64,000 nucleotides of DNA from Piromyces finnis finn (Eukaryota; Fungi; Neocallimastigomycota), in the NCBI GenBank assembly GCA_002104945.1, contig MCFH01000084.1, positions 62,001-126,000 on the forward strand, read 5' to 3'. A program made the translations under genes and the position numbers. Positions 2,640 to 39,200 of this stretch are shown in pieces. The first letter of the stretch is position 1, and every line of letters begins with the position of its first letter. A model generated the notes under the pieces. It was not told the origin of the DNA and ran no database searches. It saw only the letters and a program-made list of their open reading frames with translations.

Positions 2640-5492
2640 AATATTATTAGAAATAATTCCATAATTTTAATATTATTATTTTTGATTAAAAGGAAAGATA
2701 TTAACTCATATCTTTCTCATTAATATTTAATGGATTACCTTTTTCCTCTGCACAATCTATTAATATTTTTATTACTTCAGCATTATCTTTTACAATTGCT
2801 AATAAAAGTGGATATTGTTTGTAATTGTTACTTTCATCTTTATCCAAAGATATTTTTATTTGTTTAGAGTAATCTATTAAAAGGTTTATAATTTCAATAT
2901 TACTATTACGAACAGCTAATAAAAGTGGATACCATCCATCTTTATTTTTACTATTGATTTCTAACCTCATATTAATAGCATTAGCATAATTAATCAAAGT
3001 TTAACATTTTTAACATTATTATTACGAATAGCTAAAAGAAGTGGATATCATTCATTATGTTTTTTTATATTAATATTTAATTTTTTATTTTCTTTTTTTG
3101 CATTATTTAACTTTTTCTGTTCCTTCATTAAAAGCTTGTAAAAAGGAAATATTTTTCTCAAAAGTTCATTACTTTTACTAAAAGTTTCATTCAATTTAAA
3201 GTTTTGATTATTTTTATTCTGTTCCAATAACATCAATGTTTGAGTTTTTGGTATTTTTGAATTGATTCTGAATAATCTTTAAATTAATATTATGACGAGA
3301 AACATAATCAATTAATAATTTAATCATTTCTAAATTATCAAGAGTGGGAAATATTATTGTTTTCTTCACTAATATTTAATGGGATATTTCTCTCAGAAGC
3401 ATAGTCAATTAATAGTTTCAATATTATTATTTTCAATAGTTAATAAAAGAGGATAATCATTTTTTTTGATTTTTTTTTTAATATCCAAAGGTTTACCATA
3501 ATGATAGTCTGTATAATCAATCATAAAGTTTATATTTTTAATATTATTGTTTTTAATTGCCAATAAAAGTGGATATCATTCATCTTTACTCTCCTTTCCA
3601 ATTTCAATATTATTATCTTCTGCATATTCTTTTAATAACTTTAAAATTTCTGAATTATTGTTTTTAATAGCCAATAAAAGTGGATACCATCCATCATTAC
3701 CCACCTCTTTTTTAATTTCAATTTTAATGTTATTATCTTTTGCATATTTCCTTAATAATTCTAAATATGCTAAGAATAAAAATATTATTATGAATATTAA
3801 CGATAGTAATAAGGATAATAAATCGCCAATTTCAATAACTATTGAAAATAATTATTTTAATATAGTAAAACTATTAATCGGATACGCTAATGAAAATAAT
3901 ATTGTTTTAAAAGATTTAACAGAGAAAAATGTCAAACAAAAATATCCTATACTTTGGGCTTTTCGTAATAACAATTTAGAAATTACAAAATTATTAATTG
4001 CATATTTTGATAGATATAATAAACCATTAAATATTGATGAAAAAAATAATAATTTAAACTTTCAATATTATTGTTATATACTGCTAATAAAACTGGATAA
4101 TATCCATCTTTATCTTTATCATTCATATTTAACATTATATTGTTCTCATTAGCATATTCTTTTAATAATTCTGTAATTTTCATATAATTTTTATCAATAG
4201 TCCAGAGAAGTGGAAACTTTCCATTTTTGGTTTTCCGTTAATATTTAAAATTATTTTTTTATCTTTTACGTAATTGATTATATCTTTAATAATAGTAGTA
4301 TTATTATTTGAAATAACTAATAATAATGGATACCATCTATCATCATCACTATTATTAATATTTATTGATATATTCTTACGATTCGCATATTTTATTATTA
4401 ATTCTGTGATATTAGTATTATTATTTTTGATTTCCCATAAAAGTGGATATGATTCATCATTATTTTTTTCATTTATTTCTAAAGTAATTTTTTTACTTTC
4501 AGCATATTTAATTATTAATTCTGTAATATCAGTACTATTTTTACGAACAGCAATAAAAAGGACTTTATCTATTTTTATTTTTTACTTCAATATTTAACAA
4601 TTCCTTATCAGCATAGGTTATCAGTAATTCAATAATTTTATAATTATTCTTTTCTGAAGTTAGTAACAATGGTAAATTACCATCATTATTTTTATCATTT
4701 ATAGCAAGCTTAATATGATTATTGTTTGCATATTCAATTAATAATTTTGTTATTTCTATATTATCATTACGAATTGCCAATAATAAAGGAAAAAATCCTT
4801 CATCATTTTTTATATTAATATTTACTTTTTTGTTATTTATTTTAGTTTCTTCTAATATTGATTTAATATTTTTAATATTATTATTACGAACAGCTGATAA
4901 TAATATTTTATCATATTCATACTCTAATACTGAGTTGGAAAATAATTTTCTCCATAAGATTTTTTATCTTCATATTCACTTTTATTAATAGAGAGTCTCT
5001 CGTTTTTGATATTTAAATTTAAATATTGTGATTTTTTATTTTTTTCAAGTAATATGAGTATATCAATATTTATTTTTAAGGTATCCTTAATATCATTTTC
5101 ATCAATATTTATAAAATTTTTTTTCAATAACATATTCTATGATAAGTTTTATAATTTCAATATTATCATGACGAATTACTGATGTAAGTGTAAAATACTT
5201 TTTATTATTTTTTTCCATTAATCTTTAATGTAATATTTTTGTATAATTAATAATTCTGTTAATTCAATATTATTATTTTCAATAGATTTTAATAATGAAT
5301 AATCTCTATATATATTATTTTCATTGACATTCAAAGTAGTATTTATATGATTAGCATAATCAATTATTATTTTAACAATATCGATATTATTATTTTCGAT
5401 AGCCCACAGGAGGGGAGAAGATCCATCTTTATCTTTTTCAGAAATTATTTTCTCATCATGTTTATTTTCAGGTAATATTTTAACTTTATCAA

Positions 5493-5534
<42 letters not shown>

Positions 5535-5540
5535 TTCCAA
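2640..5540 (-). pseudogene. Ankyrin-repeat gene(s), fragmented by stops, frameshifts and an inverted insert
   Basis: Repeated units such as KDGWYPLLLAVRNSNIEIINLLIDY, KDGYYPVLLAVYNNNIES, DGNLPLLLTSEKNNYKIIELLITYA and DGSSPLLWAIENNNIDIVK occur across several short minus-strand ORFs. Confidence 0.85.
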
Positions 5541-6682
5541 AATATTAAGTTTTTTCCTTATAAAACCTTTCAAAAATTTTCTTTTATTAAATATATTTAA
5601 AAAAAAATATATTTATTATAAATTAAATTAAATAATGAAAATTTTATAAAAAATAATTGTTTTTCTTTTTTTTTACATTTATAATTATTATTAATATTTT
5701 TATCTTTTTAATAAATCAATGCTAAAAATATTAATTATTTTTCTTTCTTCTTTTTTTATACTTTTAAAATGAATATGTATATAATGATAACTTTTAACTA
5801 TTTTTCTTTTTTTTTTTTTTTCATACACTTTTATTTTTCGATCAAAGCAAAATAAAAAATTTAATTATGTTTATGTTACACGATAATTAATTAAAACTTA
5901 ATTAAAATTAAAATTGTCAGAATATATGAAATGTATGATACATGTATTGACATATATAGTCACATTGTAGTTTGAATGGAATGTAACAATAGTAGTTCTT
6001 TATTATAAATTATATTAATAAAGTTGACATAATTATAAAACCTAAATTAACAACTCCTAATAAAAATAATATACAAGTCTATTTAATAATAAAAAAAAAA
6101 TTATATTTATGTAGGTAAAATCCACTTTTACTATTAAAAATGACATTGAAATGTCTTTTTCCCTTTTATATTAATGAGATGAATTATTTTCAATTTTATA
6201 TTTATAAATAATATTTATAAATAATAATTACTAAAACTAGAAATAACAAAGTATTTTAAATAGCCTATAAATAATAAAATAATACAATAACCCCTAACTT
6301 TATTATTAAAATAAAAATAAAGCTTTAAAAAAAATTATAAAAATTATTAAAGCTTATAAAATACTATAAAATTCTTATAATAAATTTGCTAACTTTTGAT
6401 TAAGAAAAAATCAATAATTAAATTACAAATCTTTTTTCATTATTATCTAGTTTTAATAGTATCAAAGAACAAAAAAAGTTTTATTACTAATTAATGAATA
6501 TATTAAAACTTTTTCTATTGCTTTTTCAATAATCCATTTTTGTTATTATATTTATTAGAACAAATTATATATAAATAACAAGAAAAAAGTAAAAAAAAAT
6601 GAAATGAAATTTATTATTTTAATGGTTTCACTTTATTTACATATATTATATTAATTAAATAACACAAGCCTGTTTTTTTTTT

Positions 6683-9612: not shown

Positions 9613-10437
9613 ATGTTTTTTGGTAATAAATCAAAAGCTGTAAATATCGAATATAATTTTCAAAAAGAAGTTCCATTAGGTAAATTTGAATACCTTTTTA
9701 AATTTTCATTTTTTAGTTTATTATTACAGTAAAATCATTTTAAATTTTCATTTATTAGTTTATTAATTACAATAAAATCAATTTAACAAGTTTAATTATA
9801 TGGGTTATTAAAAATTCTACTAATAATACTAATATTAATTAATAAAAAAATTAAAACATAATTTTAATCTATAATCTATACAAAGAAAAAAGACAAGAAG
9901 AATCAAGAAAGATTTTAACTAATTATCCAGAAAGAATTCCAATAATTGTAGAAAGATTCCCAAATTGTGAATCAGTTCCAGAATTACAAAAAAAGTAATT
10001 CTATTAAACTTCATATTAAAAATTAATTAATTAACAAACTAAATTTTATATAAATTTAAAATAAACTAAATATAATTCATATATAGCAATGAATATAAAA
10101 TTTAAAATATTTAATTTATATGTTTTAAAATAATATTATTAGAAAATTCTTATGTCCAAGTCAAATTACTTTTGGTCAATTTACTGAAACTGTAAGAAGA
10201 AAACTTCAATTGGATCCTTCTCAAGCCTTATTTTTCTTTGTTCCAGATTTAATAAGTAATGAAGTTGTAATTTCCGATCTTTATGAAAAGAAAAAGAATC
10301 AAGAAGATGGTTTTTTAGTATGTATATAAATAATTTTTAATATATTATTTTTGAAACATTTAATAATTTTTTTTAAATATATAATATTATTCTAATAATA
10401 GTACATCACTTATTCTGGCGAAAATGTTTTTGGTTAA
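9613..10437 (+). CDS. ATG8: ATG8/LC3-family ubiquitin-like protein, divergent, 4 exons (9613-9679, 9886-9994, 10143-10317, 10402-10437), 128 aa
   Basis: Manual GT-AG splicing gives MFFGNKSKAVNIEYNFQKEVPLEKRQEESRKILTNYPERIPIIVERFPNCESVPELQKKKFLCPSQITFGQFTETVRRKLQLDPSQALFFFVPDLISNEVVISDLYEKKKNQEDGFLYITYSGENVFG*. All junctions stay in frame. Confidence 0.9.
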
Positions 10438-10504: not shown

Positions 10505-11596
10505 AATAACGCGTATCATAACCATAATCATTTATTTTTCTTTCAAATAATAATTTGATGTTTTAAATATAATATAAACTACTGTATACTTTTTAACCCT
10601 AATATTCAAAATAAAAAATAAAAAAAGTCTTTTTCTCAAATTTTTGTAATATTTTATATAATTTTATATAATTTTGTTTATTTAATATGATGAACCTTTG
10701 TTTTTTTTTAAAAAAATAAAGTATGTTATAAGAAAATAAAAATAAATAAATAAAAAAAATAAAAAATAATAAAAAAAAAAGTTGATATAGACTATGAATA
10801 ATAAATTTTAAACTATATTTAACACTAAATGTGCAGTCTTCTCTTTATTCCTAATATTAATAAAGCCACACCAAAAAAACATTCTAAATCTTAAGTATTG
10901 TCAAAAAATTATTTGTAATACATTTTAGGTTATATGATTGTTAATTAGATGGAAATATACTCAAATAATTTATTTAAATGAGTTAAAAATTGTTTTCATG
11001 TTTAAAGCCTAAAACCTATAAGACTATAAAATTAACCTTGTATATTATCTTTCCATTTTTTCCCTTTTATATATATATAATATATTAAATATAAGATATA
11101 ACTATTTTTTTAAGTTACATTAGGGATATATATTTTCTTTTAAAGTATTATAATAATAAATAATTTTAGTTATTCCATTTAAATAATATCTACCTATTTT
11201 TTTTTATCTAAATTTACAAATAAAATGAACTATTAAATATTATATAGAAAGAAACTTTTTTGTAAAATTCAAAAATAATTGGCATTTTATTTATAAAGTG
11301 AGAAAAGAAGAAAAAAAGTTGCTATAAAATAATTTTCCTTTTTTTTAAGTCAATAAAATTGAAAAAAAAAATAAAAATTAGAAAAATCCTTTATTTTTCA
11401 TTTCTTCTTATTAAATTAAAACTATTATTTACATAATATAATGAAAATTACATTTCTGAATAAATATATAATAATAAAAAAAAAGGAAGTTGCAATTCTT
11501 TCTTCATATTTCAATAAATATTAATTAATATATGAAATTACAAATTTTATTTATTGATTGATTATTCTATTTTATTTTATTTTATTTTATTTTATT

Positions 11597-11627
<31 letters not shown>

Positions 11628-11666
11628 TTTTCATTTTTCTATTGTTTTAATATCAATATTATAAAT

Positions 11667-14111
11667 TTATGAATCTTCTAAATTTGTAAATTCAATAATT
11701 TTTATGTAGGAAGAATACTTTATTTGACTTTGATTTAAAAAATGAAAATCATCAACAGAATATTGTTTTTTTAACTTAAATTTATGTTCGTTAAATATCT
11801 CTATTACTCTACTAGAATTTAATCCATATTCATAATGATTTGATAAATTGGAACCAGTAATATTTACATACATTAAATTATCACATTCACGATGACTATA
11901 TCTTAATGAACTTATTAAATATAATGGGGATGATTTATCAATAATATTTACTATTTTATTATCTCTCTTGATAAAGCATCGTTTATAGGTGATTGATGGG
12001 GATTCAATATCCTCATCCATTATATTACTATCAAAAAAAATAATAATAAAAGCACCATTTATATTTTTGCCTATATTGATAAGCATATTTGTAATATCAC
12101 TATAACAAAAATCATTTAAAGCGAAAAAGCATGTTGCAACATCAAAATTTTCTTGTAATGTCACTTTTTGAATATTATTATTAATAATTTTAACTCTATT
12201 TTTTATTTCTGCTTTTGAAAGACGGCTTTTTATTTTTTTAATTTTATCTGATTTAGATTCAACACATAAAATTTTATGAAAATGTTTCCATTTGTGTATA
12301 TCACCACCATTACCTGATCCTATATCTAATAAATTTCCTCTATAATTCTTTAATACATTATTTTTTATAATATTATGATATTTACGCATTAAGACATTTG
12401 ACTCTGGATTGAAAATATCTATATTTATTTTTTGGTGAGTTGCTAATAATACACTAATAAATGTGTTTATACTATTAGATGAAGGTTTATCTTCACGAAC
12501 CTTTACCATTTTTTGAGTATCAAGATTAAATTCTATTATAAATGGTTTCTTTTTTAATTTTTCTTTACAATAATAAACACATCTTATATTAGTCGGTGTA
12601 TTATATATATACTCAACATGTTTACGATAATGATAGTAAACATTATCTTTATTGCTTTTTTTTTTATGAATATTATATAATTTGCATATTTTTTTATATT
12701 CCGATAGTGATATATTTAAATATTTTTTATCTATCTTTTTTTGTTTAGCTAAGAAATAACGACCATTAAATTCAATATCCACTGAATTTATTGTTTTTAT
12801 TTTATAAACATTAGAATTTTCGAAATATGTTGATTTACTATCAGTTATAATAATACCATCATTTGGTAAATCATTATTCATTTCTGACGCTATATATTTT
12901 TGTATATCTTGATATGATTTTCCATATTTGATATGTTTTTTCATAACTTTATTTCCAAATTTATTAAAATCAAGGGAATTTAGAATATCTATTCTTTCAC
13001 AATAAGCTTTACTTCTTAAATCAACATCATTATAAATTATATCAAACGGAATAAATTTATTATTAATATATTCACAATCCATAACAATGTGAAAATCGCT
13101 TTCTATTTCATCTACAAATTCTACAGTAAAATTTTCTGTAATACTAAACATTAAATTATTAATTATAATTAATAATTTACGAAGACCATCGGTTTTCGTT
13201 GCAATATAAAAACTATTTTTAATTAGTTTTTTGGAATTATTGAATAGTATTTCAAATGAAGGTGTTATGGGTTTTTGAAATTCGAAATTTGGCAATAGCA
13301 TGAATAAATAATCTGTATAATAAGAAGGAGAATGGATTAATTTTATCATATTGTTTATAATATTTAACATATCTAATCTGTCAATATATATATTATTCGA
13401 AAAATCGATTTCAAATTGACTCTTTTCATCATAATATGTTACATCAAAACGTACATCTTTATCCATTAAAAAAGATCTTCGCTTTTTCAATACAGGATTA
13501 TTAGAATTTATAATTTTCCATTCTAAGCATTTATTGTTTGAAAAATTATTGGATTTTATATTTATTATATTTTTAATATCTAATGGTGTTTCAATACTAA
13601 GAACAATTTTAAATATATAGTAATACCCAGTAATTAGAGTTAATTTCTTTGTATATTCAATTTTCTCATCTAGAGTATTTGTAATTTCTTTCTTTGCATT
13701 AGCTTTTATAAAATCAAATAATTTATTTTCTTTTTCAGCATTAGATTTTATATTTTCAACTTTATTATTATTTGTATTTTCTTTTTTATTGTTATTTTTA
13801 TTTGCATTTATTAAACCTTCATTATTTTCTGAATAATAATGTGAATCACAAATTATTCTATACTTTGTACTTTGATTTTCTTTCAATAAATATTCTGAAT
13901 ACAAACATGAATTACTGCTAACAAAATTTTCAACATTTATATTAGCATATTTATTGAGTAATCTAAATTCTAATTCAAAATTTATATTATTATTTAATTG
14001 AGGAATATTTTTTAAAATCTCTATTTGATTATATATGTTTTCTAATATTTCTTTTAATGATAATTGTTTTTTTAAAGATAAATAATTATCAGTAGGTATA
14101 TTTCCATTCAT
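11667..14111 (-). CDS. Trifunctional viral-type mRNA capping enzyme (RNA triphosphatase + guanylyltransferase + cap guanine-N7 methyltransferase), 814 aa
   Basis: TPase: ELEFR (13962-13976), LSIET, KKRRSF, RFDVT, FEIDF. GTase motifs: I ATKTDG (KTDG at 13185-13196), III MDCEY, IIIa PFDII, IV NDGIII, V YKIK..NSVD, VI REDK..N. MTase: MRKYHNIIK, LLDIGSGNGGDIHKW (~12300-12326), FDVATCFFALN. Confidence 0.88.
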   Translation of the reverse strand: MNGNIPTDNYLSLKKQLSLKEILENIYNQIEILKNIPQLNNNINFELEFRLLNKYANINVENFVSSNSCLYSEYLLKENQSTKYRIICDSHYYSENNEGLINANKNNNKKENTNNNKVENIKSNAEKENKLFDFIKANAKKEITNTLDEKIEYTKKLTLITGYYYIFKIVLSIETPLDIKNIINIKSNNFSNNKCLEWKIINSNNPVLKKRRSFLMDKDVRFDVTYYDEKSQFEIDFSNNIYIDRLDMLNIINNMIKLIHSPSYYTDYLFMLLPNFEFQKPITPSFEILFNNSKKLIKNSFYIATKTDGLRKLLIIINNLMFSITENFTVEFVDEIESDFHIVMDCEYINNKFIPFDIIYNDVDLRSKAYCERIDILNSLDFNKFGNKVMKKHIKYGKSYQDIQKYIASEMNNDLPNDGIIITDSKSTYFENSNVYKIKTINSVDIEFNGRYFLAKQKKIDKKYLNISLSEYKKICKLYNIHKKKSNKDNVYYHYRKHVEYIYNTPTNIRCVYYCKEKLKKKPFIIEFNLDTQKMVKVREDKPSSNSINTFISVLLATHQKINIDIFNPESNVLMRKYHNIIKNNVLKNYRGNLLDIGSGNGGDIHKWKHFHKILCVESKSDKIKKIKSRLSKAEIKNRVKIINNNIQKVTLQENFDVATCFFALNDFCYSDITNMLINIGKNINGAFIIIFFDSNIMDEDIESPSITYKRCFIKRDNKIVNIIDKSSPLYLISSLRYSHRECDNLMYVNITGSNLSNHYEYGLNSSRVIEIFNEHKFKLKKQYSVDDFHFLNQSQIKYSSYIKIIEFTNLEDS

Positions 14112-14399
14112 TGTATAATACCTTTATTAAAAAAAATTTTTTTAAATAGTTTTATTTTTATTTTTATTTTTTTATTTACATTAATTTTGTTTATTTCATT
14201 TCATTGTTTTAAAGCATTTTTTGTTGTTTAAAAGTTTACAAACTATAATTATTGTTTGTTTATTTTTAAAATATTATTAAAATACATAATTAATTTTTAA
14301 TAAAATTTGTGTTACGATAAATTAATATATTACGTTACATTACATTAAGAAAAATTTTTATTATTCTTAGTTAAAATTGATTAATCTTAATATATTAAA

Positions 14400-14660: not shown

Positions 14661-15034
14661 AAAAAATAAAAAAATTTAGGTTTTTTTTTTTAGGTATGGG
14701 GAGACATTACTAAATTCAAAATTTTGTTTTTTATAATAAAAGATTAATTTAAATTTCAATTTAATTAATAATATTTTACATCATTAAAAATTTCTATTAA
14801 ACTTTATTAATAAAATTTTTACCTTTTCCTTTTGATCAATACTATACTAATACCTTTAATTATCATTTATTTTTAAATTTTAATTTTAATAAATAGAAAT
14901 TTAAATTAGTAAAAAAAACTTTTGATACTTTTTTTTATTAATAAATATTAATACTATTTATACTAATAATAAAAAAAATATAATAATTATAAAAAATTTC
15001 AATTTAAAATTTTTACAAATTAAGAATTAACTAT

Positions 15035-15552
15035 AACTATTTCTCTTATTACTATCATATTATATTATACATAAAAATTGATATAACAAAATATACCAAA
15101 TACATCAAATTCGTATTCGTATTCTTCTAATAGAAGATTTTTTTTTAATAATGATAATACTTGAATACATCAGATATTGCTGGAAATGATCCAAGCAGTC
15201 AAGCTCTTTCCATTCCATATCTGATGTATATTAATGCTAGTAATATTTTTATTTTTATATTTAAAACAAAAAAAAAGTTAACTAGTTTATCAACTATTTC
15301 TCTTATTACTATCATATTATATTATACATAAAAATTGATATAACAAAATATACCAAATACATCAAATTCGTATTCGTATTCTTCTAATAGAAGATTTTTT
15401 TTTAATAATGATAATACTTGAATACATCAGATATTGCTGGAAATGATCCAAGCAGTCAAGCTCTTTCCATTCCATATCTGATGTATATTAATACTAGTAA
15501 TATTTTTATTTTTATATTTAAAACAAAAAAAAAGTTAACTAGTTTATCAACA
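15035..15552. repeat. 257-bp tandem duplication
   Basis: AACTATTTCTCTTATTACTATC... starts at 15035 and again at 15292, and the two copies are nearly identical. Confidence 0.85.
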
Positions 15553-15936
15553 CTTAGACTTTTTAAATACGAATTTAATATATTATATATTGTATGTATT
15601 TTGGTATATTTTGCTATATCATTTAATACTTCTGATATTTTATATATATTTTATATTGAAATTTAAATGTTTACTTTGTGTAACCTCAAAAATTTTTATT
15701 GTAAAGTTATATTTATAAATATTTACTAAAAGAAAACCAGCAATTCCTAATCCCCAACTAATAATATCACTAGATCATGGTTATTTTAATAAATGTATTT
15801 CACCCTCTTACTATGTTTATCATATACATAAGTAATACTACTTTTTCTAGGTTCTTTACAAAAATCATGTGTACATGAATTAGTTTTTAACTTTTTAACA
15901 CTAAAAACTACTAAATTATCTATACACTAGGTCTAT

Positions 15937-16134
15937 CTACCCAATAGAACCATTATTAATTAATCTACAATCATATATTTGATAAAAATATTCATTAATA
16001 GGATTAGTATCATACCACTTTACAAAATAATTATCTCTATTAATATTAAAACTAGTAGGATCACATGTACATTCACATAAAATAATATTAATATTAATTA
16101 AGCATATAATAACAGTCACAATTTTGTTAAGCAT
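15937..16134 (-). CDS. Small ORF with signal-peptide-like N-terminus and Cys cluster; possibly the 5' end of a decayed secreted or membrane protein gene
   Basis: MLNKIVTVIICLININIILCECTCDP...; coding-like text continues in broken frames to ~15540. No family recognised. Confidence 0.3.
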   Translation of the reverse strand: MLNKIVTVIICLININIILCECTCDPTSFNINRDNYFVKWYDTNPINEYFYQIYDCRLINNGSIG

Positions 16135-17126
16135 CTTTAATATTTATTTATATATAAGATATATTAATATATTCAATTATCTTTATATCTATCAAAATGT
16201 ACATAATGTGGTATTATATATATAAAAATATGGTATTAAATGTATTGATTAAAATATGTAAAAGTTTTGTGTCATTAAGAAGGAAGAAGGTACTAAAAAA
16301 AATAAACTTTTTTTTTAACTATATAATTTCAATTAGTTTATTAAATACTATAAAAAATAGATATAATTGTCAATGCAATAATTAAATGGTTTATAATACG
16401 GATAGAGAAAATTAGTGAGCTTGTCTGCACGGAGCATTATCTAGAGCATCTGAACCTTTAATTATTATTAAAATAATTATTAACATTATAATTGTTATTG
16501 ATGACACAAAATCATCAATTATTTTATGTTTATTTTTTTTTTACTTAAAAAATTATTTTTTAAAAAATTAAAAACTTTCATAAAGAAAAAAAATAAATAA
16601 TATTTTTATTTTCAATTTTTTATTATTATTATTTTATTTTTATTATATTTATTTAAAAAGTCTTAATAATAGTCTATAATTTAAGTTTTTAATTTTTTAA
16701 AAATAATTTTTTAAGAAAAAAAATAAATAATATTTTTATTTTCAATTTTTTATTATTATTATTTTATTTTTATTATATTTATTTAAAAAATCTTAATAAT
16801 AGTCTATAATTTAAAATATTACATTTTATCATTTAAATAATATTTTTTTTAAACATTACACTTTCTTTTTTTTTTTTGTTATTTACATTTATCATTATTT
16901 TCATTTATCATTATTTTCATTATTAATTTAAACTAATTTAAATGATTTAATTTTTTATTATTATTTTCTATCATTATATTCATCAAATTATTATTAATTT
17001 AAACTAATTTAAATGATTTAATTTTTTATTATTATTTTCTATCATTATATTCATCAAATTTAAACTAATTTAAATTTTAAGTTAATTTAAGCATTTTCTT
17101 AGCTGGCGTAATTATAAGCATTGCAT

Positions 17127-18566
17127 TTATGCGTCATCAGCCTTGTGGTTACGCTTTTCAATTTCCTTGTTGATTTCATCAATCTTTTCATCAGTTAATG
17201 AATAGAAGGAAATGATAATCATCATAACAATCATTAAAATAGCTGGAATAATAGCAACATTCCAACGAATACATTCCTTAGTAGAATCGGCTTGGTGCTT
17301 CATCTTGTAGAACCAACCAACGGAAGTATTGTGGATATTCATACAACAGAAAGCAGTAACGAAGTAGAAAGCAATAACACGTAATGGTCCGTTACGAATA
17401 AATTCAATCCATAAATCACTAACCTTAACATTTTCAGTTTCCTTGTCTTCCATAACAACACGTTCCTTAGACTTAACGAAACAGAATACAAGAAGTAAGA
17501 AACCAACAACAGCGTAAAGAATCATAGCAGAGAACCAAGCCTTTGAATCAGTAGTATAACCACTACCACCATCCTTAGCTTCAAGGTCTGCATCGTAGTG
17601 GAAGAAGTAAAGGAGCCATCCTGGAATAGCACCACCAAGAGCAAAACCGGCCTTGAAGAAAATACCAGTAAGAGCATTGATAATACCGGCAATACGACGA
17701 CCAGTAGTATATTCAGCATAAGAAATAACTTCTGGAACAATAGCCCACATGTAACCAGTAACAGTGGTAAGACCAGTTGACTTGATAAAGTTGGCAACTA
17801 ACATCCAGACACTCTTATCAGAGTCGGCAAGACCCATTCTACTGAAGATGTATAATAAGGCATAACCGATAATACCAATAACACCAAAGGAATAGAATAA
17901 TCCCTTCTTACCAGTGAACTTCTTAATGTATGGAACAAATGGCATGATGACAAAACCTGGAAGAGCACCAATAAAGTTGAATAAAACAACATTCCAATCA
18001 ATAGCTTGTTTGGAGAAGAGACCAGCAACAATTGGGAAACCAGTCCAGACAAATAAACCACCAATGTTAGCCATAGTCATACGAATAGAGGTAAGAACTG
18101 TAATTTCTTGAGTATCTCTAGTCATTGAAGCATTTAAGGCACCGTATGGAACGTTAGTAAGAGTGTAACACATTTGTAATAAAGTGTAGGTAATAGCGGC
18201 GTAAGTAATACTACCCTTGAAAATATCCCAGTAACAAAGAATAGCAAGAACACATAATGGGAAACCAGCTGTAACTAAATAGGAACGGTACTTACCCCAA
18301 CGTGGGTTGTGCTTATCAACAAAGGCACCAACAAATGGATCCCAAATAACATCAAGTAAACGAACAATAAGCATAAGTGCACCTGATACAGCTGTTGCTT
18401 TCTTTGAATCATTACCAATAATATATACATTAGTGTAGTAGAATGCAATAAAACCACTAACATTTTGGTAAATAAAGTTTTGTGCCATATCACCAGCACC
18501 ATAACCAATTCTGGTTAACCATGAAAGCTTGAAAAATCCATTGGCTTCGTCCTTTACTGTACTCAT
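17127..18566 (-). CDS. GPH-family (MelB/XynT-like) MFS sugar:cation symporter, copy 1, permuted helix order
   Basis: RIGYGAGDMAQN, VRLLDVIWDPFVG, WGKYRSY, NVPYGAL..SMT.D, KERV, W...PEVISYAEY.TGRR..G motifs; intronless 479 aa. Confidence 0.92.
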   Translation of the reverse strand: MSTVKDEANGFFKLSWLTRIGYGAGDMAQNFIYQNVSGFIAFYYTNVYIIGNDSKKATAVSGALMLIVRLLDVIWDPFVGAFVDKHNPRWGKYRSYLVTAGFPLCVLAILCYWDIFKGSITYAAITYTLLQMCYTLTNVPYGALNASMTRDTQEITVLTSIRMTMANIGGLFVWTGFPIVAGLFSKQAIDWNVVLFNFIGALPGFVIMPFVPYIKKFTGKKGLFYSFGVIGIIGYALLYIFSRMGLADSDKSVWMLVANFIKSTGLTTVTGYMWAIVPEVISYAEYTTGRRIAGIINALTGIFFKAGFALGGAIPGWLLYFFHYDADLEAKDGGSGYTTDSKAWFSAMILYAVVGFLLLVFCFVKSKERVVMEDKETENVKVSDLWIEFIRNGPLRVIAFYFVTAFCCMNIHNTSVGWFYKMKHQADSTKECIRWNVAIIPAILMIVMMIIISFYSLTDEKIDEINKEIEKRNHKADDA

Positions 18567-20340: not shown

Positions 20341-21780
20341 ATGAGTACAGTAAAGGACGAAGCCAATGGATTTTTCAAGCTTTCATGGTTAACCAGAATT
20401 GGTTATGGTGCTGGTGATATGGCACAAAACTTTATTTACCAAAATGTTAGTGGTTTTATTGCATTCTACTACACTAATGTATATATTATTGGTAATGATT
20501 CAAAGAAAGCAACAGCTGTATCAGGTGCACTTATGCTTATTGTTCGTTTACTTGATGTTATTTGGGATCCATTTGTTGGTGCCTTTGTTGATAAGCACAA
20601 CCCACGTTGGGGTAAGTACCGTTCCTATTTAGTTACAGCTGGTTTCCCATTATGTGTTCTTGCTATTCTTTGTTACTGGGATATTTTCAAGGGTAGTATT
20701 ACTTACGCCGCTATTACCTACACTTTATTACAAATGTGTTACACTCTTACTAACGTTCCATACGGTGCCTTAAATGCTTCAATGACTAGAGATACTCAAG
20801 AAATTACAGTTCTTACCTCTATTCGTATGACTATGGCTAACATTGGTGGTTTATTTGTCTGGACTGGTTTCCCAATTGTTGCTGGTCTCTTCTCCAAACA
20901 AGCTATTGATTGGAATGTTGTTTTATTCAACTTTATTGGTGCTCTTCCAGGTTTTGTCATCATGCCATTTGTTCCATACATTAAGAAGTTCACTGGTAAG
21001 AAGGGATTATTCTATTCCTTTGGTGTTATTGGTATTATCGGTTATGCCTTATTATACATCTTCAGTAGAATGGGTCTTGCCGACTCTGATAAGAGTGTCT
21101 GGATGTTAGTTGCCAACTTTATCAAGTCAACTGGTCTTACCACTGTTACTGGTTACATGTGGGCTATTGTTCCAGAAGTTATTTCTTATGCTGAATATAC
21201 TACTGGTCGTCGTATTGCCGGTATTATCAATGCTCTTACTGGTATTTTCTTCAAGGCCGGTTTTGCTCTTGGTGGTGCTATTCCAGGATGGCTCCTTTAC
21301 TTCTTCCACTACGATGCAGACCTTGAAGCTAAGGATGGTGGTAGTGGTTATACTACTGATTCAAAGGCTTGGTTCTCTGCTATGATTCTTTACGCTGTTG
21401 TTGGTTTCTTACTTCTTGTATTCTGTTTCGTTAAGTCTAAGGAACGTGTTGTTATGGAAGACAAGGAAACTGAAAATGTTAAGGTTAGTGATTTATGGAT
21501 TGAATTTATTCGTAACGGACCATTACGTGTTATTGCTTTCTACTTCGTTACTGCTTTCTGTTGTATGAATATCCACAATACTTCCGTTGGTTGGTTCTAC
21601 AAGATGAAGCACCAAGCCGATTCTACTAAGGAATGTATTCGTTGGAATGTTGCTATTATTCCAGCTATTTTAATGATTGTTATGATGATTATCATTTCCT
21701 TCTATTCATTAACTGATGAAAAGATTGATGAAATCAACAAGGAAATTGAAAAGCGTAACCACAAGGCTGATGACGCATAA
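20341..21780 (+). CDS. GPH-family MFS sugar:cation symporter, copy 2
   Basis: Translation identical to copy 1. Confidence 0.92.
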   Translation: MSTVKDEANGFFKLSWLTRIGYGAGDMAQNFIYQNVSGFIAFYYTNVYIIGNDSKKATAVSGALMLIVRLLDVIWDPFVGAFVDKHNPRWGKYRSYLVTAGFPLCVLAILCYWDIFKGSITYAAITYTLLQMCYTLTNVPYGALNASMTRDTQEITVLTSIRMTMANIGGLFVWTGFPIVAGLFSKQAIDWNVVLFNFIGALPGFVIMPFVPYIKKFTGKKGLFYSFGVIGIIGYALLYIFSRMGLADSDKSVWMLVANFIKSTGLTTVTGYMWAIVPEVISYAEYTTGRRIAGIINALTGIFFKAGFALGGAIPGWLLYFFHYDADLEAKDGGSGYTTDSKAWFSAMILYAVVGFLLLVFCFVKSKERVVMEDKETENVKVSDLWIEFIRNGPLRVIAFYFVTAFCCMNIHNTSVGWFYKMKHQADSTKECIRWNVAIIPAILMIVMMIIISFYSLTDEKIDEINKEIEKRNHKADDA

Positions 21781-26059: not shown

Positions 26060-28446
26060 TTAATTTATGATAGTACTGCGAATCATTGTGACAGTTTTAG
26101 TAATAGTTTTAATTTCATTTGTTGCGGTTGCAGTAATTGTAACTAAATCCTCTTCTTCTTCAGAATCACTTTCATCAATAGCTGTTACTTCTTCTTCAAC
26201 TTCAAGAGCTTCATCATCAGAAATATATTCTACATCAATTGAAGTTGGAGTTGGTTCAGTTGAAGAATTAGTTTGAGTTTCAATAAATGAATCAGAATAA
26301 GTCTCAGTTGGTGATTCAGTTGATGTTTCGACAATAGTTTCATTCGAAGCTTCACTTGGTGATTCAGTTGGTGTTTCAAATACAACTTCAGTATAATTAT
26401 AATCAATTGATGTTTCAGTTGGCATTTCATATGAATAATAAGTAGAATACCAACCATCAAATCCAAAATCATAGTTATAATTAACATTAAGTTCTTCAAC
26501 AACTGGATATTCATAATTCTCATCTAAATAAGTTGAATCACATTCTAATGAATAGTAATCACAAGTATATCTATATCTCATAAGAATCCAATACTTTAAT
26601 CCATAGGATTCCATATCTGAATAGCCATTAGTAAATTCAGAATAAGCATCCCATTGTTCTAAAGAAAAGTTTCCATCAATACCACCTGTATTAAAATGAC
26701 CAGGATAATTACCATTAGCATCTGGTGTTTTATCTAATATAACATATGGTTTAATGTACTCTTTAATTTCATCAATATGAGAATAAAGTGTTGATGGATT
26801 AAAAACTTTACTAATAACTTCACTTAATATTTTTTCAAATCTAGCTGAATCATTGAAAATTAGTACTTCTATAAGATGAATATTTCCATAAGCGGCTGTA
26901 ATTGTAATTGGAGCATTGAAAAACATACTTACTTGTCCGAAATCATGATCAAAATCATGAGATAAATAAATCCATTTACCATTAGGTTGTTTGTACATAT
27001 AGTAATTATGAGTATTTTGAATATGGTCATAGGCACCTGTTAAATAATCAATGGCCATTTCATATAAAAAATGATCAATTTCGAAAATATCTTCAAGATC
27101 TGCGGCTGATTTAGCATTTTCAATTGCTGTTAAAAATTCAATCCATTCAGTATCATTATCAATTTCTTCATTTTCATTAATACATCCATAAGAATATTCT
27201 GGAAGTAAATCAATCATGCTATCACACTTATATAAATTTTTTGCATTCTTTTCACCATAAACTTCTTCAATCCATGATAATTTATAATCATCATTAAATG
27301 TATATAATCCCATGAATTCATCATTAATGTAAAGTTGTACATAAGTAGATGAAACTGATTTTAATCCTAAACGATTATGAATATCTGAAATTAATTTTGT
27401 TCTCATAATAGTTGGATCATTTAAATCAGCGCGAAGTTTAAATTGACTACGTCCATGAAGATCCTTATTACCTCTGATTTTTAAATTAAAACCTGGTTTT
27501 TGGAAGAATCGAGAGTATGCACCACCTAATTTAAAAGTTACTTTATCAAATGAATTTTGTTCTCTACAAAAGACATATGTATACAATATATATTTAAAAG
27601 TAATAATTAATAACAATATTGTATTAATAATATTAATATAAATCTAATGAATATTATTACTATTGGTAATAATAAATTTATTAATTACTTACCCATTAAT
27701 TTCGAAAATCATAGTAGCATTTTTAGTTTTGAATGATTTCATAACTTCTTCTTCTTCTTCTTCATTAATACTAATAATAGATCTAATATCAGATGGGATA
27801 CTTGCATTTTGTATTATTTCAAGTAATTCCATATCATTATGATTGTCTGACATTTTTAAACCATCAAGTACTTCTGAAATTCTTATCATATTGAAATCTT
27901 CATTACTTTCTAAAATTTCATAATATACTTCATAAAAATCTTCCATACTAACTATACTAATATTTTCTAAATTAAAGTCGAATCCATTTATTACTTCTAT
28001 TGCATCAAAAGTAGGAAAACCATCTTCTCCTATTTTTAATTCTGGAAGAATTTCATCAAAATTATAGCCAGGGTAATATTCTTTGAAATTTACTTTTTTT
28101 AAACCAAAAATTACATTATATAAAGTAGCTTTAATCATATTAATAGCAGAAGAAGCAGTTAATTCATAGTTAACCTTCATATATGAACTTTCTTTCAATT
28201 TAATAAATTCCTCATCAGGCATATATATTTTTAAATTTGGCATTGCATTATCTGTAAGTTCAAATAATTCTGCTCTTTTCCCTTTATCAATGAAAGTAGA
28301 TATAGCCAAAGTACTGTAAACTATATATAATTCATTTCAAAAATATATTTAGTTAGTCAATATATCAATTACCTTTTTTATTATTTACTACTTATTTAAT
28401 ACTAACCGCAACAACATAATAAAATGAATAAATTTTTAATTAACAT
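26060..28446 (-). CDS. Secreted CotH-family kinase-domain protein, 3 exons (28446-28407, 28320-27693, 27563-26060), with an S/T/E-rich C-terminal tail
   Basis: Spliced N-terminus MLIKNLFILLCCCVYSTLA looks like a signal peptide. CotH motifs KLGGAYSR, FKLRAD..DPT, YVQLYINDEFMGLY, HNYYMY..PNGKW..L.HDFD. GT-AG introns in frame; intron 1 has a CTAAC branch site. Confidence 0.88.
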
Positions 28447-29912: not shown

Positions 29913-30699
29913 TGTTAGTGTATTGCTTTTACTAATATTTGATTTTAAATTTTCTTCATATATATATATATACTTTAAATTTTCTTTTGTAATTTTAAAC
30001 ATAAAATTTATCAGATGTTTTATATAGTTTTCAAACATAATAATATATTTTCTTGATATAATTTATTAACATTTGTACCAAAATAAATGAATATTTAAAA
30101 ATTATAAAAATATTAAATTTTTTATTAATGATAAGAACTTAACTATACTTAACCATACCTAAAATATATATATATTTCTATACTTTTTATCTTATATCAT
30201 AATATTAATTATAGAGATTTATTAATGATTTTTGATATCAATTTAAAGTTTAATATACATTTTTATATCCTAATTATTAAAATAAATAAATTTATTATAT
30301 CTTTCTTCTTTTTTTATTATCTTTAAATTTTCTTCTTTATTAAATATATCTAGTAGAAAAAAAATAAGGTAACACAGTCTTTATTATAAAAATTAAATTA
30401 TTAAAATCTAAATTATGAAAAAAATCATATAAATTGTCTTTGTGTTATATTTATTTTAGAAATAAAATAGTCAACGTTATTTTTTTTTAAAACTAAGAAG
30501 ATATTACACTTTCTTCTTTTATTTATTCATTTAATTTGTGATTTTACATTATATTAGGTGATAATACATATTGAAATAATAAATAATAAATAAAAATAAT
30601 AAATATATATATATATATATATATAAAAATAAAGTAATTATTAAAGTTACATAAAAGTTTAATGAACTCTGCAATTTGTACTGTGTGGGATTGGTCCCT

Positions 30700-33695
30700 A
30701 CCTAATAAATTAAATGAAATAAAAAAAAAAGAAGTAACATCAGGTAGGATAGTGTGGTGTCCACTAAACTCTCCCATGAGTTCATAATGCTTTCATTCGA
30801 AGAAATACTAACATTGAACCCTGTGTACGGAACACTGAGAATGTTCCTTTGCCATATCGGTACGACGTCGGCGCTCTTGATTATGTTAGGTGTCTTATCA
30901 AAAAGTAGCTTCATAGAGCTACTAATGATAGGGATTGTTTTAATAAGAAAAGCTGAGAGACCCTCTACCTATGGAACATGAGACCCCTGATGAACTGTAA
31001 AGCTGTTCATTCAAGTATCTTTGTTCCGCCTTATCGATTTGTAGCTCATCATAAGCTAAAGTTCCATCAAGAAGGAACGTAAAAATATAGTTATAAATTG
31101 TTTTTTCTTATTTCCATTTCAGGGAGTAAGTATGTGATGAATTGATTCTTATATTCATCGAATACAAATAATCCAGGTAATTCCTAAATTTAAGTGAGGT
31201 TTTTTGAGACCGATATGCATTAGGCGATTTGAATTAAGGAATTTGTTGTTAGTATATCTGATGGCTTTACTTCCATTATTTAGGCTACTATTATTCCAAT
31301 AATATTCTCTAATATCTTTAGTACTTTTAATATTTATTTTCATAAGCTTCTTATGTAGTGAACAAGATTCTTTGGCCCAAGAGTAATGAGACATGGGAGG
31401 AATAGATCAGACGAGATCTTTAATAATACAATTTGATTTTCTCCATTTAACAAAGCATTTCACTTGTTGCGCAGCACAAATACCTGAAAGGGTAGGAATC
31501 TTCATATCTCTTGTAAGAGCATACAGACTAATAAATGAATTTCGTTCAAAAACAAAATCTTTGTTATTAAAACTTTTATTGTGAAAGCTATTGACACTCC
31601 ATAAAACAGCAGTATTGATAAGAGATTGGACTCTTCTAGTTCTATTTTCGTTGGAACCAGGTAAAGGAGCATAATAAGAGACTTTGCTTAAAATATAGGA
31701 ATGAATTACTATATTTTTTAAGCCAATAGGAACACTATTGTTAGTGAGGAAGCTCTTAAAAGAGAATAAGGATTTCTGAACTTTTTTGTACATATTAGAC
31801 AGAATAGGAATCAGAGAGAGATCTTCTCGAATGGGATTCCAAAATAAGTATAGCAAGAAACCTTTGGAATCGAGTACATACCGATGTAAAATGTTGGGTC
31901 GACATAACTAGGGGATCTATTAAAGTTTATAGGTTTAACAACAATAGTTGCACATTTATTTATTCCAAAAGACATTTCATTTAAATTAGCCTAATCAAGG
32001 ACTAGATTGAGCATCTTTTGAAGGTTCTTCTTGCTAAGAGCAATCAGAACAATGTCATCAGCGAAAAGACCACCACAGCAACATTTATTTCCTAAGCTAA
32101 CACCAAACCTTTCACATTTATTTAAAATATCATTGATGAAGAGATTAAATAGAATAGGAGAAAGAGGACATTCTTGTCTTACACCACGATTGATAGGGAA
32201 TTCATTAGAAAGCATATCCAAGAAACGTGAACGAGCTTTTGAGGTAGAGTAGAAATTATTGAGAAAATCAAAACACTTACCACGTATACCTAATTTATAT
32301 AGCTTTGTAAGGATATTAAAAATAGGAACTGAGTCGTATGCTTTTTTAAGGTCAAGAAAAGCAACATAAGTGGTTTTTCCTTTAAATTTTCTTCTTTGAC
32401 AGATTTCTCTAATGGAAATAAATAAGCTAATACATTCTTCTTTATTGCGAAATCCAAATTGCTCAGGTCTTATAAAATTATGAGAAAGAGCATATTTTGA
32501 AATTCTATTAATTACAATTTTTGAAATGATTTTAAGATCTACGTTGATGAGAGAAATACCACGATAATTATTACAGTCTGAAAGATCGCCTTTCTTTGGA
32601 ATAGAAACAATGGAAGTAGAATTCCATTTCAAAGGAAAGGATCCATTCCAGATTTTATTAAAAATTAATTTAAGACAATTACCAGCAGACTTATGTTCTT
32701 TTTCCAATTCTTCGTTACAAAAGAAAGCTTTGAAGAATTCAATTGGTATACCATCGGGACCTGGAGCCTTATTATTCTTCATTGATAGAACAGTATTTCT
32801 AATTTCCTCAATAGAGATGGGATCATTAATATTCCATGCTATTTGATTGATATGATTGAATTGGAAGGCTCTTTCCCAGTAACCCCGATTTAAGCTATGA
32901 TTTGTAACATCAGATGCAAGATTTTCATAATGTTCAGCCTAACGTTTTAATTGTTCTTGAGGAGTAAATAAATCCTTGCCATTCTTGTCCTTAAGAGTTG
33001 AAACATGAAAGGATGAATAACTTGGTTTGGCAGGTTTTTTAAGGCCTTTTCAACCTTGTCTAATGCTTTTATCAATAAAATGTTTACCGATAGAAACAAT
33101 ATTAGCTTTACAGAGATTGGATCTGAATTTACTCTTAACCTTTTTGATGGTATTACATAAATTTTGGTATATGGAGAACTGGTTAAGATAATTATCCATG
33201 TCAGCGCAATCTGAAAGGGATTTAATATTTTTGTAAGCCAGATGTTTTTCATGTAATAAGTTTTTGATGTATTGAGGGCAATGGAATGCTGGACCTTTTA
33301 AATCTGCAGTCACAATGGCTTTTATATCTTTACCTAAAGTTTTGGAAGTATCTAAAAATTTTGAAACCATATCGTCAGCCGATAGGCTATCGCAATTAGC
33401 TTCAAGCTTAGAAGCTAGAACAGCAAAACGATTACTAGTAAGAATGTCAGAACACTTTGTGTTACAGATATGACTTGACCACTTAAAGGTCTTCTTAGGC
33501 TTTTTGAAACCATCAGAAGTCTTTTTTAAAAGACACAAGGATCAGAAACATCGGGAAAAACTTCGCAAACTGAAGATTTGTTTATGTGTTCTGTCATAGC
33601 TTTGTTGTATATAATATGGTCAATGCATGAAGATTTAGATCCTTTTTCCCAAGTAAAATTATTACCAGTTAACTCAGCCATAGTCCAATCAAGGA
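30700..33695 (-). mobile_element. Degenerate LINE (family 2): end of APE domain, RT and C-terminal region, broken by frameshifts; 5' part lost at the family-1 junction
   Basis: KAPGPDGIP, YRGISLIN, EQFGFR, FLDLKKAYDSV, GVRQECPLSPILFNLFINDI and FADDIV. APE tail TWEKGSKSSCIDHII at ~33610-33660. Confidence 0.88.
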
Positions 33696-36284: not shown

Positions 36285-39200
36285 TCATGGATCAAAATTA
36301 TGATCTCCATTGGTTGCGCTGGCCCTCCTGGCCTGTCTTACTGTTTCTTCAGCATTGACGCTCTTGGATGTTGCTTCAAACCTTTTGAACATTGACCATT
36401 GCTGGCCAATAGCAAAAGGCATGATTTTGGTTAGAAGTTCCGCGGTTACCGTCAAGAATGGTGTTCCTTCATTAGTACCAGATTGAATCTGACGCTTACA
36501 AAGTTCTTTCCATTCCCTTGAATTGTAATTAATATTGTTAAAACTTCTTCCCCCAAGAAGGAATTTAAATATTTCACTGCACACACTAGAATAATCATAC
36601 ACATTAATATTCACCGGATTATTAGAACTATTACTATCATTAACTAAATTACTATCTAAATTAGAATTATTATCTTCACTATTGCTATCATTACTAATAT
36701 TATTATTTCTATTATTGTTATTATTACTATTGTTACTATTACTATTGTTACTATTACTATTGTTACTATTACTATTGTTACTATTACTATTAATGTTATT
36801 ACTATCTCTACTGATATTATCAATTTCATTATTATAGATAGGACTATTGGAATTACGTTGACTGAAAAAATTTAATAGCTGGACTATGGAATCATAATGT
36901 TTAATACGGATATCTCTAAATGTTGGACAATCTAATAACCAATGTTTAATACTTTGATCTCCACACTTGCAACATGGACAGTAGTTAGGACAAACTGGAT
37001 CAACAAATTTAGCAGCTTTGGCAACTCTAGCATCCAACTTGTATCCGCTTCTTGCTTTCAAGAGCCAGTAGAAGCCATAGGCAAACTCTGGGTACTCATA
37101 ACATAATTTAATAAAATCTTTAGTTTCAATAAATTTATTATCATCATAATATTGCGCTTTGATTGAATTCCCTTTGAGATCTTTCCAATAAAAGTTTTTA
37201 ACTGCTTTAACATCTCCATGTTTCTTTAATTTTTTATCAAGTGTCCTACTTGATTTGCACCACGTGTATTTTCTAAATTTAGGAATGTAATTGACAAGGT
37301 GTGAGATAATACAATTTGAGTTTTTCCATTTGTTAAAACATCTAACCTGAGCTAACGCACATTTGGCTGACAATGGAGGAATATTCAAATCTTTTGAAAT
37401 AGAGTATAAAGATATAAACGATACAGCTTTATGAACTCCAGCAACCCATCGTATTCCTTTGTTAACATGCTTCTGAGCAATCCTAGACCTAGCTTTGTTG
37501 GATCCAAGTAATGGTGCAAAGTATGAAACTCTGCTAATCACTTGTGAGTTAAGTACTAGTTTTTTGAAAGGAATAGGAATATTAGGATTTCTTAAGAATT
37601 TACTGACTGAGAAAAGCCCTTTCAAAACCTTGTTATTAAGAGCTTTAATTACTGGTTTAAGGGACAGATTCTTATCAAATGGAACACCAAGATAAGTATA
37701 GCAATCAGTAGTTGGAATGGGTTGTCCTGCTAAGTAAAATGTTGGATCTCTCTTGTTCTGATTTTCTATTGATTCAGGACGAATCACCATCGTTGAACAT
37801 TTCTGGATACCAAATTCCATTTCATTATACAAGGCCCATTCATTAACTCTTCTAAGCATCTTTTTTAAGCATCCTCTTGTTGGAGCACAAATAACTATAT
37901 CATCTGCAAAAAGTCCACCACAGCATCGAGTGTCACCTAAACTGACTCCTAGATCTTCGCACTCTCTAAATATATCATTAATAAAGAGATTAAAGAGAAT
38001 AGGAGAAAGAGGGCATCCTTGACGGACTCCTTTCTTCACATCAAAAGATTTCGAGAATTGTCCATCTAATTTGACATTAGCCTTAGATGTTAAATATAAA
38101 TTTTTGATAAATTGTAGACTCTTACCTCGGATTCCTAAACAATCTAATTTATGGAGAATATTACCGATTGGGACTGAATCGTATGCTTTCCTGAGATCTA
38201 AAAAGGCCAAATATGTCTCTTTATTATCTAATTGACGTCTACGGCATATTTCTTGGATTGAAATGAAAAGACTGATACTTTCTTCCTTTTTTCGAAAACC
38301 AAATTGTTCAGGTCTAATGAAATTATTCTTTAAACCATATTCTGAGATTCTAGTGGTGACAATTTTGGAAATCAACTTAATACCATTATTGATAAGTGAT
38401 ATACCTCGATAGATATCACAATCTGTCAAATCTCCCTTCTTAGGAATAGAAACAATACTGGATTCATTCCATGAGTTGGGGAAATCTCCATCCCAAATAC
38501 GGTTGAATAATTTAAGAATAAAATTTAAACCATGAGCATCATTATCTGAAGTAGTATTACCAGAAGAATTATTATCTGTAGCATTATTAGAATCATTACT
38601 TGATGGAATTAATGCTTTGTAAAATTCAATTGGAATACCATCCGGACCTGATGCTTTATAATTTGGAGTAGTGAGGATAGCTGACTTGACTTCATCAATA
38701 CTAATATCTTGGTTGATATCCCACTCATCAAGCATAGGAAGTGAAAAACGTTTATTCGTTGGTTCTTCATACCAATGCTCCAAATCAAGACTTACACCAC
38801 TTGGATCTGATGCAAGATTTTCGAAATGATCATGCCACACATCTAGTTGTTCTTCCGTAGCAACAACTAATTCTCCGTTTTTATTTTTAATTGGTTGAGC
38901 AATAAAGAAAGAATCTTTTCCAATTTTTGCAGTTTTCTTGATCCATTTCCAGGCCTTCTTAGGATTATGACTCTTCATATACTCACATCCTGTTTTAATC
39001 CAATGAAGATATTCTTGCTTCCTAAATTCATTACATCTTTTGTGGATGTAATCAATGAGTTTACGGTAGATTTTAATTCTTTTAATAAATTCATCTATAT
39101 CATAAATTCTTTCTTTTTTAAATCTCTTATACAACTTCATTTTGATTTTTTGGAGATTAAAAAATTGTTGTGAAATATGAAATGAAGACTTTATAACATT

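Follow-up and report, generated by a model that had tools for sequence, protein, structure and literature searches.

Fundsalphaviruses are Pithovirus-related endogenous elements that were described from the genomes of gut fungi, Piromyces finnis included (Gong, Zhang, Han 2020, PMC7017919; the name was met only there in the searched literature, which lacks most subscription journals). According to the available parts of that paper, compact fundsalphavirus units are present in every gut fungus sampled, and their gene set comprises UDG, a two-part RPB1, RPB2, D5, PolB, an SNF2 helicase and a gene labeled 'SAM/AdoMet_MTase'; the elements were screened by DNA polymerase, and the last gene is named as a methyltransferase only (in the text available, the word 'capping' is absent from the supplement and the gene is not so called in the body). 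Here we describe a 64-kb window of P. finnis (the whole stretch of 64,000 nucleotides from 62,001 to 126,000 of contig MCFH01000084.1), in which the product of one open reading frame (ORF) is predicted to be a trifunctional mRNA capping enzyme. The fundsalphavirus SAM gene resembles this capping ORF in family (50-68% identity to relatives) and in hosts. Compared with the fundsalphavirus loci in the published material available, however, the capping ORF has no adjoining POL, RPB, D5 or UDG, lies on an unlisted contig, is intact and belongs to a lineage apart from the P. finnis provirus copies. We assign a probability of about 0.65 to the reading that it is a young or lightly decayed stray copy from the fundsalphavirus family, the parent element of which is not beside it. 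The element family itself has already been published from P. finnis; what is particular here is a lone, intact copy of a separate lineage.

Several other described systems carry capping enzymes. The enzymes of Pithovirus, Marseillevirus/Tunisvirus, Solumvirus and Orpheovirus resemble the capping ORF over the full length of the fold and in the way their domains are arranged (TM 0.44-0.50, E 1e-35 to 1e-23), whereas the capping ORF is only 11-16% identical to them, lacks a C-terminal OTU-like extension, has Asp where motif C would have its second Glu and lies in a nuclear chromosome. Vaccinia D1 and NP868R of African swine fever virus (ASFV) have the same order of RNA 5'-triphosphatase (TPase), guanylyltransferase (GTase), OB fold and methyltransferase (MTase), aligned over residues 16-811, but the domain packing differs in the model (TM 0.21-0.27) and no D12-like partner was seen in the window. 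The product of pGKL2 ORF3 (YKP3) is likewise trifunctional and comes from a cytoplasmic, AT-rich fungal element (available parts of PMC6211774 and PMC13348850); by their descriptions the two are set apart, in that such virus-like elements (VLEs) replicate via a protein-primed pPolB, whereas the capping family travels with an RNA-primed PolB, D5 and UDG. The Mycodnaviridae of zoosporic fungi are likewise giant-virus sequences that include capping enzyme genes, but, unlike the capping ORF, they form genome bins of 200-290 kb and possess capsid genes (PMC13533422, as far as available); neither Neocallimastigomycota nor Piromyces is mentioned in the available main text of that paper or in the available text of bioRxiv 2025.04.19.649669.

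Domains, conserved residues and predicted fold of the capping ORF

The ORF and its three predicted domains are as follows.

11667..14111, minus strand: intronless trifunctional mRNA capping enzyme ORF, 814 aa (ORF listing, start as in its relatives)
13401..13988, minus strand: RNA 5'-triphosphatase domain of the tunnel-metalloenzyme type, about residues 42-237 (profile, model alignment, conserved columns)
12432..13289, minus strand: guanylyltransferase, nucleotidyltransferase plus OB fold, about residues 275-560 (Pfam, profile, conserved columns)
11679..12404, minus strand: cap guanine-N7 methyltransferase, about residues 570-811 (fold match, conserved columns)

The frame is single and unbroken, as a preliminary description made from the sequence had stated, and at its composition of 20% GC the chance probability of such a frame is about 1e-39. 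The four motifs named in that description are all present (ELEF at residues 46-49, EID at 234-236, KTDG at 306-309 and DIGSGNGGD at 596-604). The public protein BCR36DRAFT_416709 of P. finnis, from a 159,190-bp contig, is identical to the 814-aa ORF, and its gene model has 18 extra N-terminal residues that were added via a predicted intron; the start of the aligned relatives is the ATG at 14111, without these residues. The description had also called the codons strongly A/T-ending, unlike those of the host-adapted xylB and transporter genes. GC content at synonymous third positions (GC3s) is indeed 0.10, compared with 0.22-0.26 in xylB and the transporter, but the host CotH gene (0.08) and an aldo-keto reductase (0.13) are as A/T-ending as the capping ORF; only the use of ATA for Ile is unusual (53 of 103 codons, versus 4 of 39 and 0 of 47 in the comparison genes).

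Pfam alone recognized the methyltransferase plus a weak capping OB fold, and a PDB search with the single sequence gave a weak methyltransferase only, so that a family profile was required. It was built from 107 relatives picked by protein length from two homologue searches (37 matches, and 604 proteins at E <=0.001), and the same 107-row alignment gave a structure model with pLDDT 85.6 and pTM 0.82, which replaced a 17-row model with pLDDT 46.9. Both the profile searched against PDB and the predicted fold bear out the order TPase-GTase-MTase. The TPase region of the profile matches mimivirus-type chains (3bgy/2qy2, E 7e-12), with E46/E48 in motif A, R50, E174, R211 and E234/D236 in motif C as its residues; the model is aligned to vaccinia D1 from residue 16-43 onward, and its TPase domain is of low confidence at residues 73-124 and 188-203. 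For the GTase, the matches are to Pfam mRNA_cap_C (E 5e-5) and, with the profile, to PDB guanylyltransferases (E 6e-41). Its catalytic K306, encoded at 13194-13196, is Lys in 105 of the 107 rows, motifs I (KxDG), III, IIIa, IV and V and the OB-fold residues were found, and the family majority residue stands at all GTase sites (K306, D308, G309, D345, E347, D357, D418, G419, K437, K439, E527 and R539). The MTase is marked by MRKYHN at residues 575-580 and by the S-adenosylmethionine (SAM) loop, encoded at 12300-12326; all its catalytic positions have the family majority residue in the 107-row alignment, the profile matches cap N7-methyltransferases in PDB (E 8e-21), and the modeled domain superimposes on the Encephalitozoon cap MTase 2hv9 over 217 residues (Z 24.1, root-mean-square deviation 2.4 A).

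The predicted fold aligns to vaccinia D1 along its full length. In the viral fold library BFVD, the nine top matches are capping enzymes of Pithovirus, Tunisvirus/Marseillevirus and Solumvirus (TM 0.46-0.50), whereas ASFV, pox and mimivirus-type enzymes reach only 0.21-0.27 against the model. Conserved residues and modeled structure together identify the 814-aa ORF as a trifunctional capping enzyme that is of the Nucleocytoviricota type and has a viral origin, with all three activities predicted. A fusion of the host genes Cet1, Ceg1 and Abd1 would also give such a chain, and the individual domains do match fungal enzymes well; yet every full-length fold match is viral, the neighbours of the relative P0005 in the Atlas outside its own cluster are Nucleocytoviricota clusters, the ORF is intronless and its relatives stand in an element context, so that this origin is effectively refuted. 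On fold and conserved residues, the N-terminal tunnel domain would strip the gamma-phosphate from nascent RNA, K306 would accept GMP from GTP and then transfer it onto the RNA's diphosphate end, and methylation of the guanine at N7, with SAM as donor, would fall to the C-terminal domain.

One position of the TPase departs from the pattern. Motif A has ExE and motif C reads E-I-D, with Asp236 in a column that has Glu in 97 and Asp in 7 of the 107 rows. These seven rows are the capping ORF and gut-fungal relatives, and because the Asp is common to the element-borne P0008 of A. robustus and to P0006 and P0276, EID is an inherited trait of the lineage; as a mark of decay it was rejected.

A capping enzyme family of gut-fungal elements

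The homologue search gave 37 matches from 7,997 candidates scored, comprising 25 named proteins of Neocallimastigomycota (Piromyces, Anaeromyces, Neocallimastix), 11 further relatives with 48-66% identity and one distant protein. Many of the named relatives occur as several intact copies on contigs of 30-90 kb. By equal size in bp, which is the only link used here, contigs of relatives correspond to element contigs in the available Fig. S2 of PMC7017919: 64,180 bp (P0008), 44,289 bp (P0240), 127,315 bp (P0042, P0043, P0053) and 68,043 bp (P0037). The first of them, from A. robustus, is drawn there with AdoMet_MTase, UDG, RPB2, D5 and POL; our searches with UDG and PolB reached proteins on the 64,180-bp contig too, and PolB matches also lie on three further contigs bearing capping genes (93,040, 64,761 and 70,080 bp). 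Two public gene models join capping pieces with UDG or PolB pieces. In both trees the capping ORF is nested among P0008, P0240 and the fragments of the 127,315-bp contig.

Judged from these sequences, the 'SAM/AdoMet_MTase' gene of fundsalphaviruses appears to be this trifunctional capping enzyme family, and the published 'SAM methyltransferase' would be re-annotated as a full capping enzyme. Together with RNA polymerase subunits, helicase, PolB, D5 and UDG, it would give the compact elements a transcription and replication kit of their own. On the parent element, transcripts made by its own RNA polymerase would receive their caps from this enzyme, apart from the host Pol II machinery. The family is thus already described as an element gene, and the capture seen here is one of many in these genomes.

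The preliminary description had proposed capture from either a large DNA virus or a cytoplasmic linear plasmid. The first part is upheld by the fundsalphavirus family and the Pitho/Marseille-type folds, and the second is not. A yeast-type linear plasmid (VLE, pGKL2 ORF3-like) has a like three-domain layout and is likewise very AT-rich, and the available parts of PMC13348850 report VLEs in Mucoromycota and Zoopagomycota and, as a tentative case, in a chytrid. The PolB linked to our relatives, however, is a family-B polymerase of the RNA-primed type (PF00136+PF03104) and occurs with D5 and UDG, whereas VLEs use the protein-primed pPolB (same source, as available); the top full-length folds are Pitho/Marseille-type, and in the 64-kb window no polymerase, and hence no VLE-type pPolB, was found. 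Since the family is linked to an RNA-primed PolB and D5, we consider a plasmid origin very improbable.

Among the relatives, the P0006 cluster consists of seven near-identical capping enzymes of 801-812 aa on Logan contigs, the longest of which measure 42,490, 42,473, 42,416, 42,384, 39,579, 28,339 and 27,066 bp. Four of these sizes fall within 106 bp, which suggests a discrete unit of about 42.4 kb, possibly a live element; the closest kin of P0006 are the broken P. finnis provirus copies (67-82% identity). In Neocallimastix lanati, 'constans' and californiae there are dozens of intact copies of about 925-950 aa on contigs of 20-90 kb, and a UDG cluster of n=63, which suggests either that copies multiplied in a recent burst or that a free element is present in many copies. 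The many intact copies and the ~42.4-kb contigs suggest that gut fungi may harbour a living element and not merely a fossil, and as a hint of this the P0006 contigs may matter more than the capping ORF itself.

Chitin-binding (ChtBD1) genes adjoin the capping gene in the available Fig. S2 of PMC7017919, and a Zancudomyces element contig in the same figure bears a zymocin-alpha-like chitinase, reminiscent of killer plasmids. A second, very divergent capping lineage of Neocallimastix (P0056, P0193, P0194; about 31% identity) is truncated in the methyltransferase, branches outside the main family and is found on chromosomal contigs as long as 1.14 Mb and 0.62 Mb. Many compact trifunctional enzymes of 610-750 aa, shorter than typical giant-virus enzymes, were met on metagenome contigs of 2-72 kb (P0054-P0068 and similar). 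The search for capping loci gave at least four in metagenome contigs, with one close locus among the matches listed (L003, 1,631 nt, 5'-truncated), only two distant loci from metagenome-assembled giant-virus genomes in viral contigs, and none in prokaryotic genomes or in the plasmid collection; no loci for P0055, P0065 or the PolB P0313 were found in the viral contigs. A giant-virus metagenome contig (L006:5927-15421) has a polyprotein-sized ORF of 3,164 aa that includes a capping methyltransferase match.

Solitude, intactness and lineage of this copy

The window contains 471 frames of at least 38 aa, 139 of them outside known ORFs and not of low complexity; 131 of these were scanned with Pfam together, 4 separately and 1 in part, and 3 were left unscanned. 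In the 131 frames no viral family was found (only ankyrin, ATG8 and retroelement families matched), and profiles of UDG and PolB gave nothing in the six frames of the window. No PolB, D5, RPB1, RPB2, helicase or UDG thus stands beside the capping ORF in the 64 kb, RPB and D5 having been sought via Pfam on short frames only, and the earlier statement that no further viral hallmark lies nearby is confirmed. A tblastn match of a UDG protein at 30649-30782 was due to a LINE-like N-terminal piece and was rejected. The 159,190-bp contig is absent from the five P. finnis DNA polymerase contigs in the available part of PMC7017919. Because Fig. S2 of that paper, as available, lists lone POL copies among host genes, the solitude of the capping ORF is not special.

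The other P. finnis copies found are fragmentary gene models of 137-410 aa, and the capping ORF is whole. These copies are 55-59% identical to it and cluster with P0006, and a clade of all P. finnis copies was rejected (p-AU 6e-5, approximately unbiased test, LG+G4, 22 rows; this grouping was chosen after a quick tree had been inspected). The sister of the capping ORF is the metagenome protein P0003 (68% identity, support 99/98). At 16 of 234 otherwise invariant columns the capping ORF deviates, compared with 0-14 in the other intact rows (the next being 14 of 232); the deviations are mostly conservative and include P619S and T443S at positions conserved family-wide, and they neither show nor exclude relaxed selection. 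With substitutions only, neutral change would leave the ORF stop-free with a probability of 0.23 at 1% and 0.05 at 2% divergence, so that its intactness reflects either less than about 2% neutral change since insertion or selection.

The capping stretch occurs in five sequencing runs from four studies (2016-2022) under one organism label, one run being possibly the source, and the four runs that were aligned have zero differences over it. Mis-assembly, by which fungal flanks would have been attached to an ORF that came from a contaminant or from a free element, is in view of these runs improbable, the more so as a 2,572-nt contig of the DNA run, spanning 11640-14120, agrees with the window flanks throughout its reach and not with another gene. 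Such a join would fit the facts that both ends of this contig lie in A-rich repeats and reach neither the neighbouring ATG8 gene nor the upstream gene, the linkage of ORF and ATG8 resting on the assembly, and that sister genes lie on the repeated ~42.4-kb contigs.

Three of the runs were guessed to be RNA, none that contains the stretch being recorded as such, and the hint of transcription that they give was graded weak. The bin 14308-14380 is covered by the DNA run and not by these three, which is no proof alone. On this evidence the capping ORF may be weakly transcribed.

Several observations speak against a young or lightly decayed stray copy. In the three putative RNA runs, the ORF is covered by contigs that are unspliced and free of differences (in one run by a single contig of 2,394 nt), and two of these contigs, which come from separate studies, end at 11706 and 11709, where the DNA contig continues. 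A whole ORF among fragmentary paralogues fits selection equally well. No near-identical parent was seen (the DNA run, aligned at 90% likeness, had no variant letters); since the P. finnis copies belong to another clade, a recent capture would require that its donor later disappeared. The TPase activity is uncertain as well, given Asp236 in a column that is otherwise almost always Glu; a change from Glu to Asp at the metal site of motif C often inactivates Cet1 or vaccinia D1. Finally, no clean target-site duplication was found around the capping ORF, and an imperfect flanking repeat stands at the 90th percentile of the background, which is not significant, and overlaps the tail instead of coming after it.

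Domestication would be an old capture, transcribed by host Pol II and kept by selection, e.g., for a part in cytoplasmic (re)capping or in helping or hindering related elements that infect the fungus. It would explain a whole ORF with all catalytic residues of GTase and MTase kept in a genome whose paralogues are fragmentary, the missing element neighbour in the window, the missing close parent and the weak sign of RNA in three runs, each of a different study, and the closest relatives (P0003, P0004, P0005, P0007) are full-length in several metagenomes. However, these relatives may sit on elements, their contigs reaching 12-23 kb; in these genomes a lone element gene is commonplace (PMC7017919, Fig. 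S2 as available); the departures at invariant columns, P619S and T443S included, are slightly above those of every other intact row; and it is a guess that the three runs are RNA. We therefore regard domestication as doubtful. Just as tentative is the idea that P. finnis adopted the capping enzyme of a Pithovirus-related element and so gained single-chain capping independent of Pol II, with which it would recap RNA in the cytoplasm or control a ~42-kb element of rumen fungi, still in circulation, that bears an RNA polymerase. As a lone and intact copy, the capping ORF allows a clean test of the idea that giant-virus capping enzymes can be adopted by a fungus, and it is a candidate single-chain capping enzyme for biochemistry.

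For the stray copy that we prefer, the flanks hint at a route to this site.

11569..11630, minus strand: (AAAT)n(AAAAT)n array, 37 nt past the capping stop codon, the sole such array in the window
14137..14212, minus strand: A-rich stretch resembling 11572-11650 behind the stop (repeat comparison)

The likeliest single route to an insert the size of one gene would be reverse transcription of an element mRNA by a young, poly(A)-tailed host long interspersed nuclear element (LINE). Two open LINE ORFs with poly(A) tails (36285-40808 and 42763-47289; 1,507 and 1,508 aa) are 98.6% identical, and together with the A-rich array behind the stop they suit such retrocopying. The array, which is not pure poly(A), is possibly a decayed poly(A) tail. 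The likeness between 14137-14212 and 11572-11650 is not significant (about 10% of 1,398 random pairs are as high). Retrocopying appears to us slightly more probable than deletion of the remaining provirus.

Surroundings of the ORF in the window

Two further features adjoin the capping ORF.

9613..10437, plus strand: divergent host ATG8-family gene, 128 aa, intact, with four exons, GT-AG introns and a terminal Gly (frame scan)
15000..16143, minus strand: upstream neighbour, a membrane-protein-like gene that is either broken or rich in introns, seen as short hydrophobic frames (no Pfam match)

The ATG8 gene, absent from the ORF listing, is the nearest neighbour of the capping ORF (convergent, 1,230 nt away). 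The preliminary description had the neighbouring ankyrin genes and retroelements decayed, which is true of the ankyrin region (2700-5544, many short frames, in pieces) but not of the intact ATG8 gene and the two open LINE ORFs. The upstream neighbour contains an exact tandem duplication of 257 nt (15035-15548), which may be an assembly artefact.

Fragments of 3' ends are stacked behind both LINEs, and the CotH kinase gene at 26060-28336 is split into two or more frames. The window also has four MFS_2 sugar-transporter genes that lack introns and are nearly identical, with 0-8 nt differing, beside an intronless xylulokinase gene; the cluster occupies 17127-18566, 20341-21780, 48975-50414, 56909-58348 and 62469-63953, the first two being identical and divergently oriented, and it is a recently amplified, possibly bacterial-derived group for xylose use.

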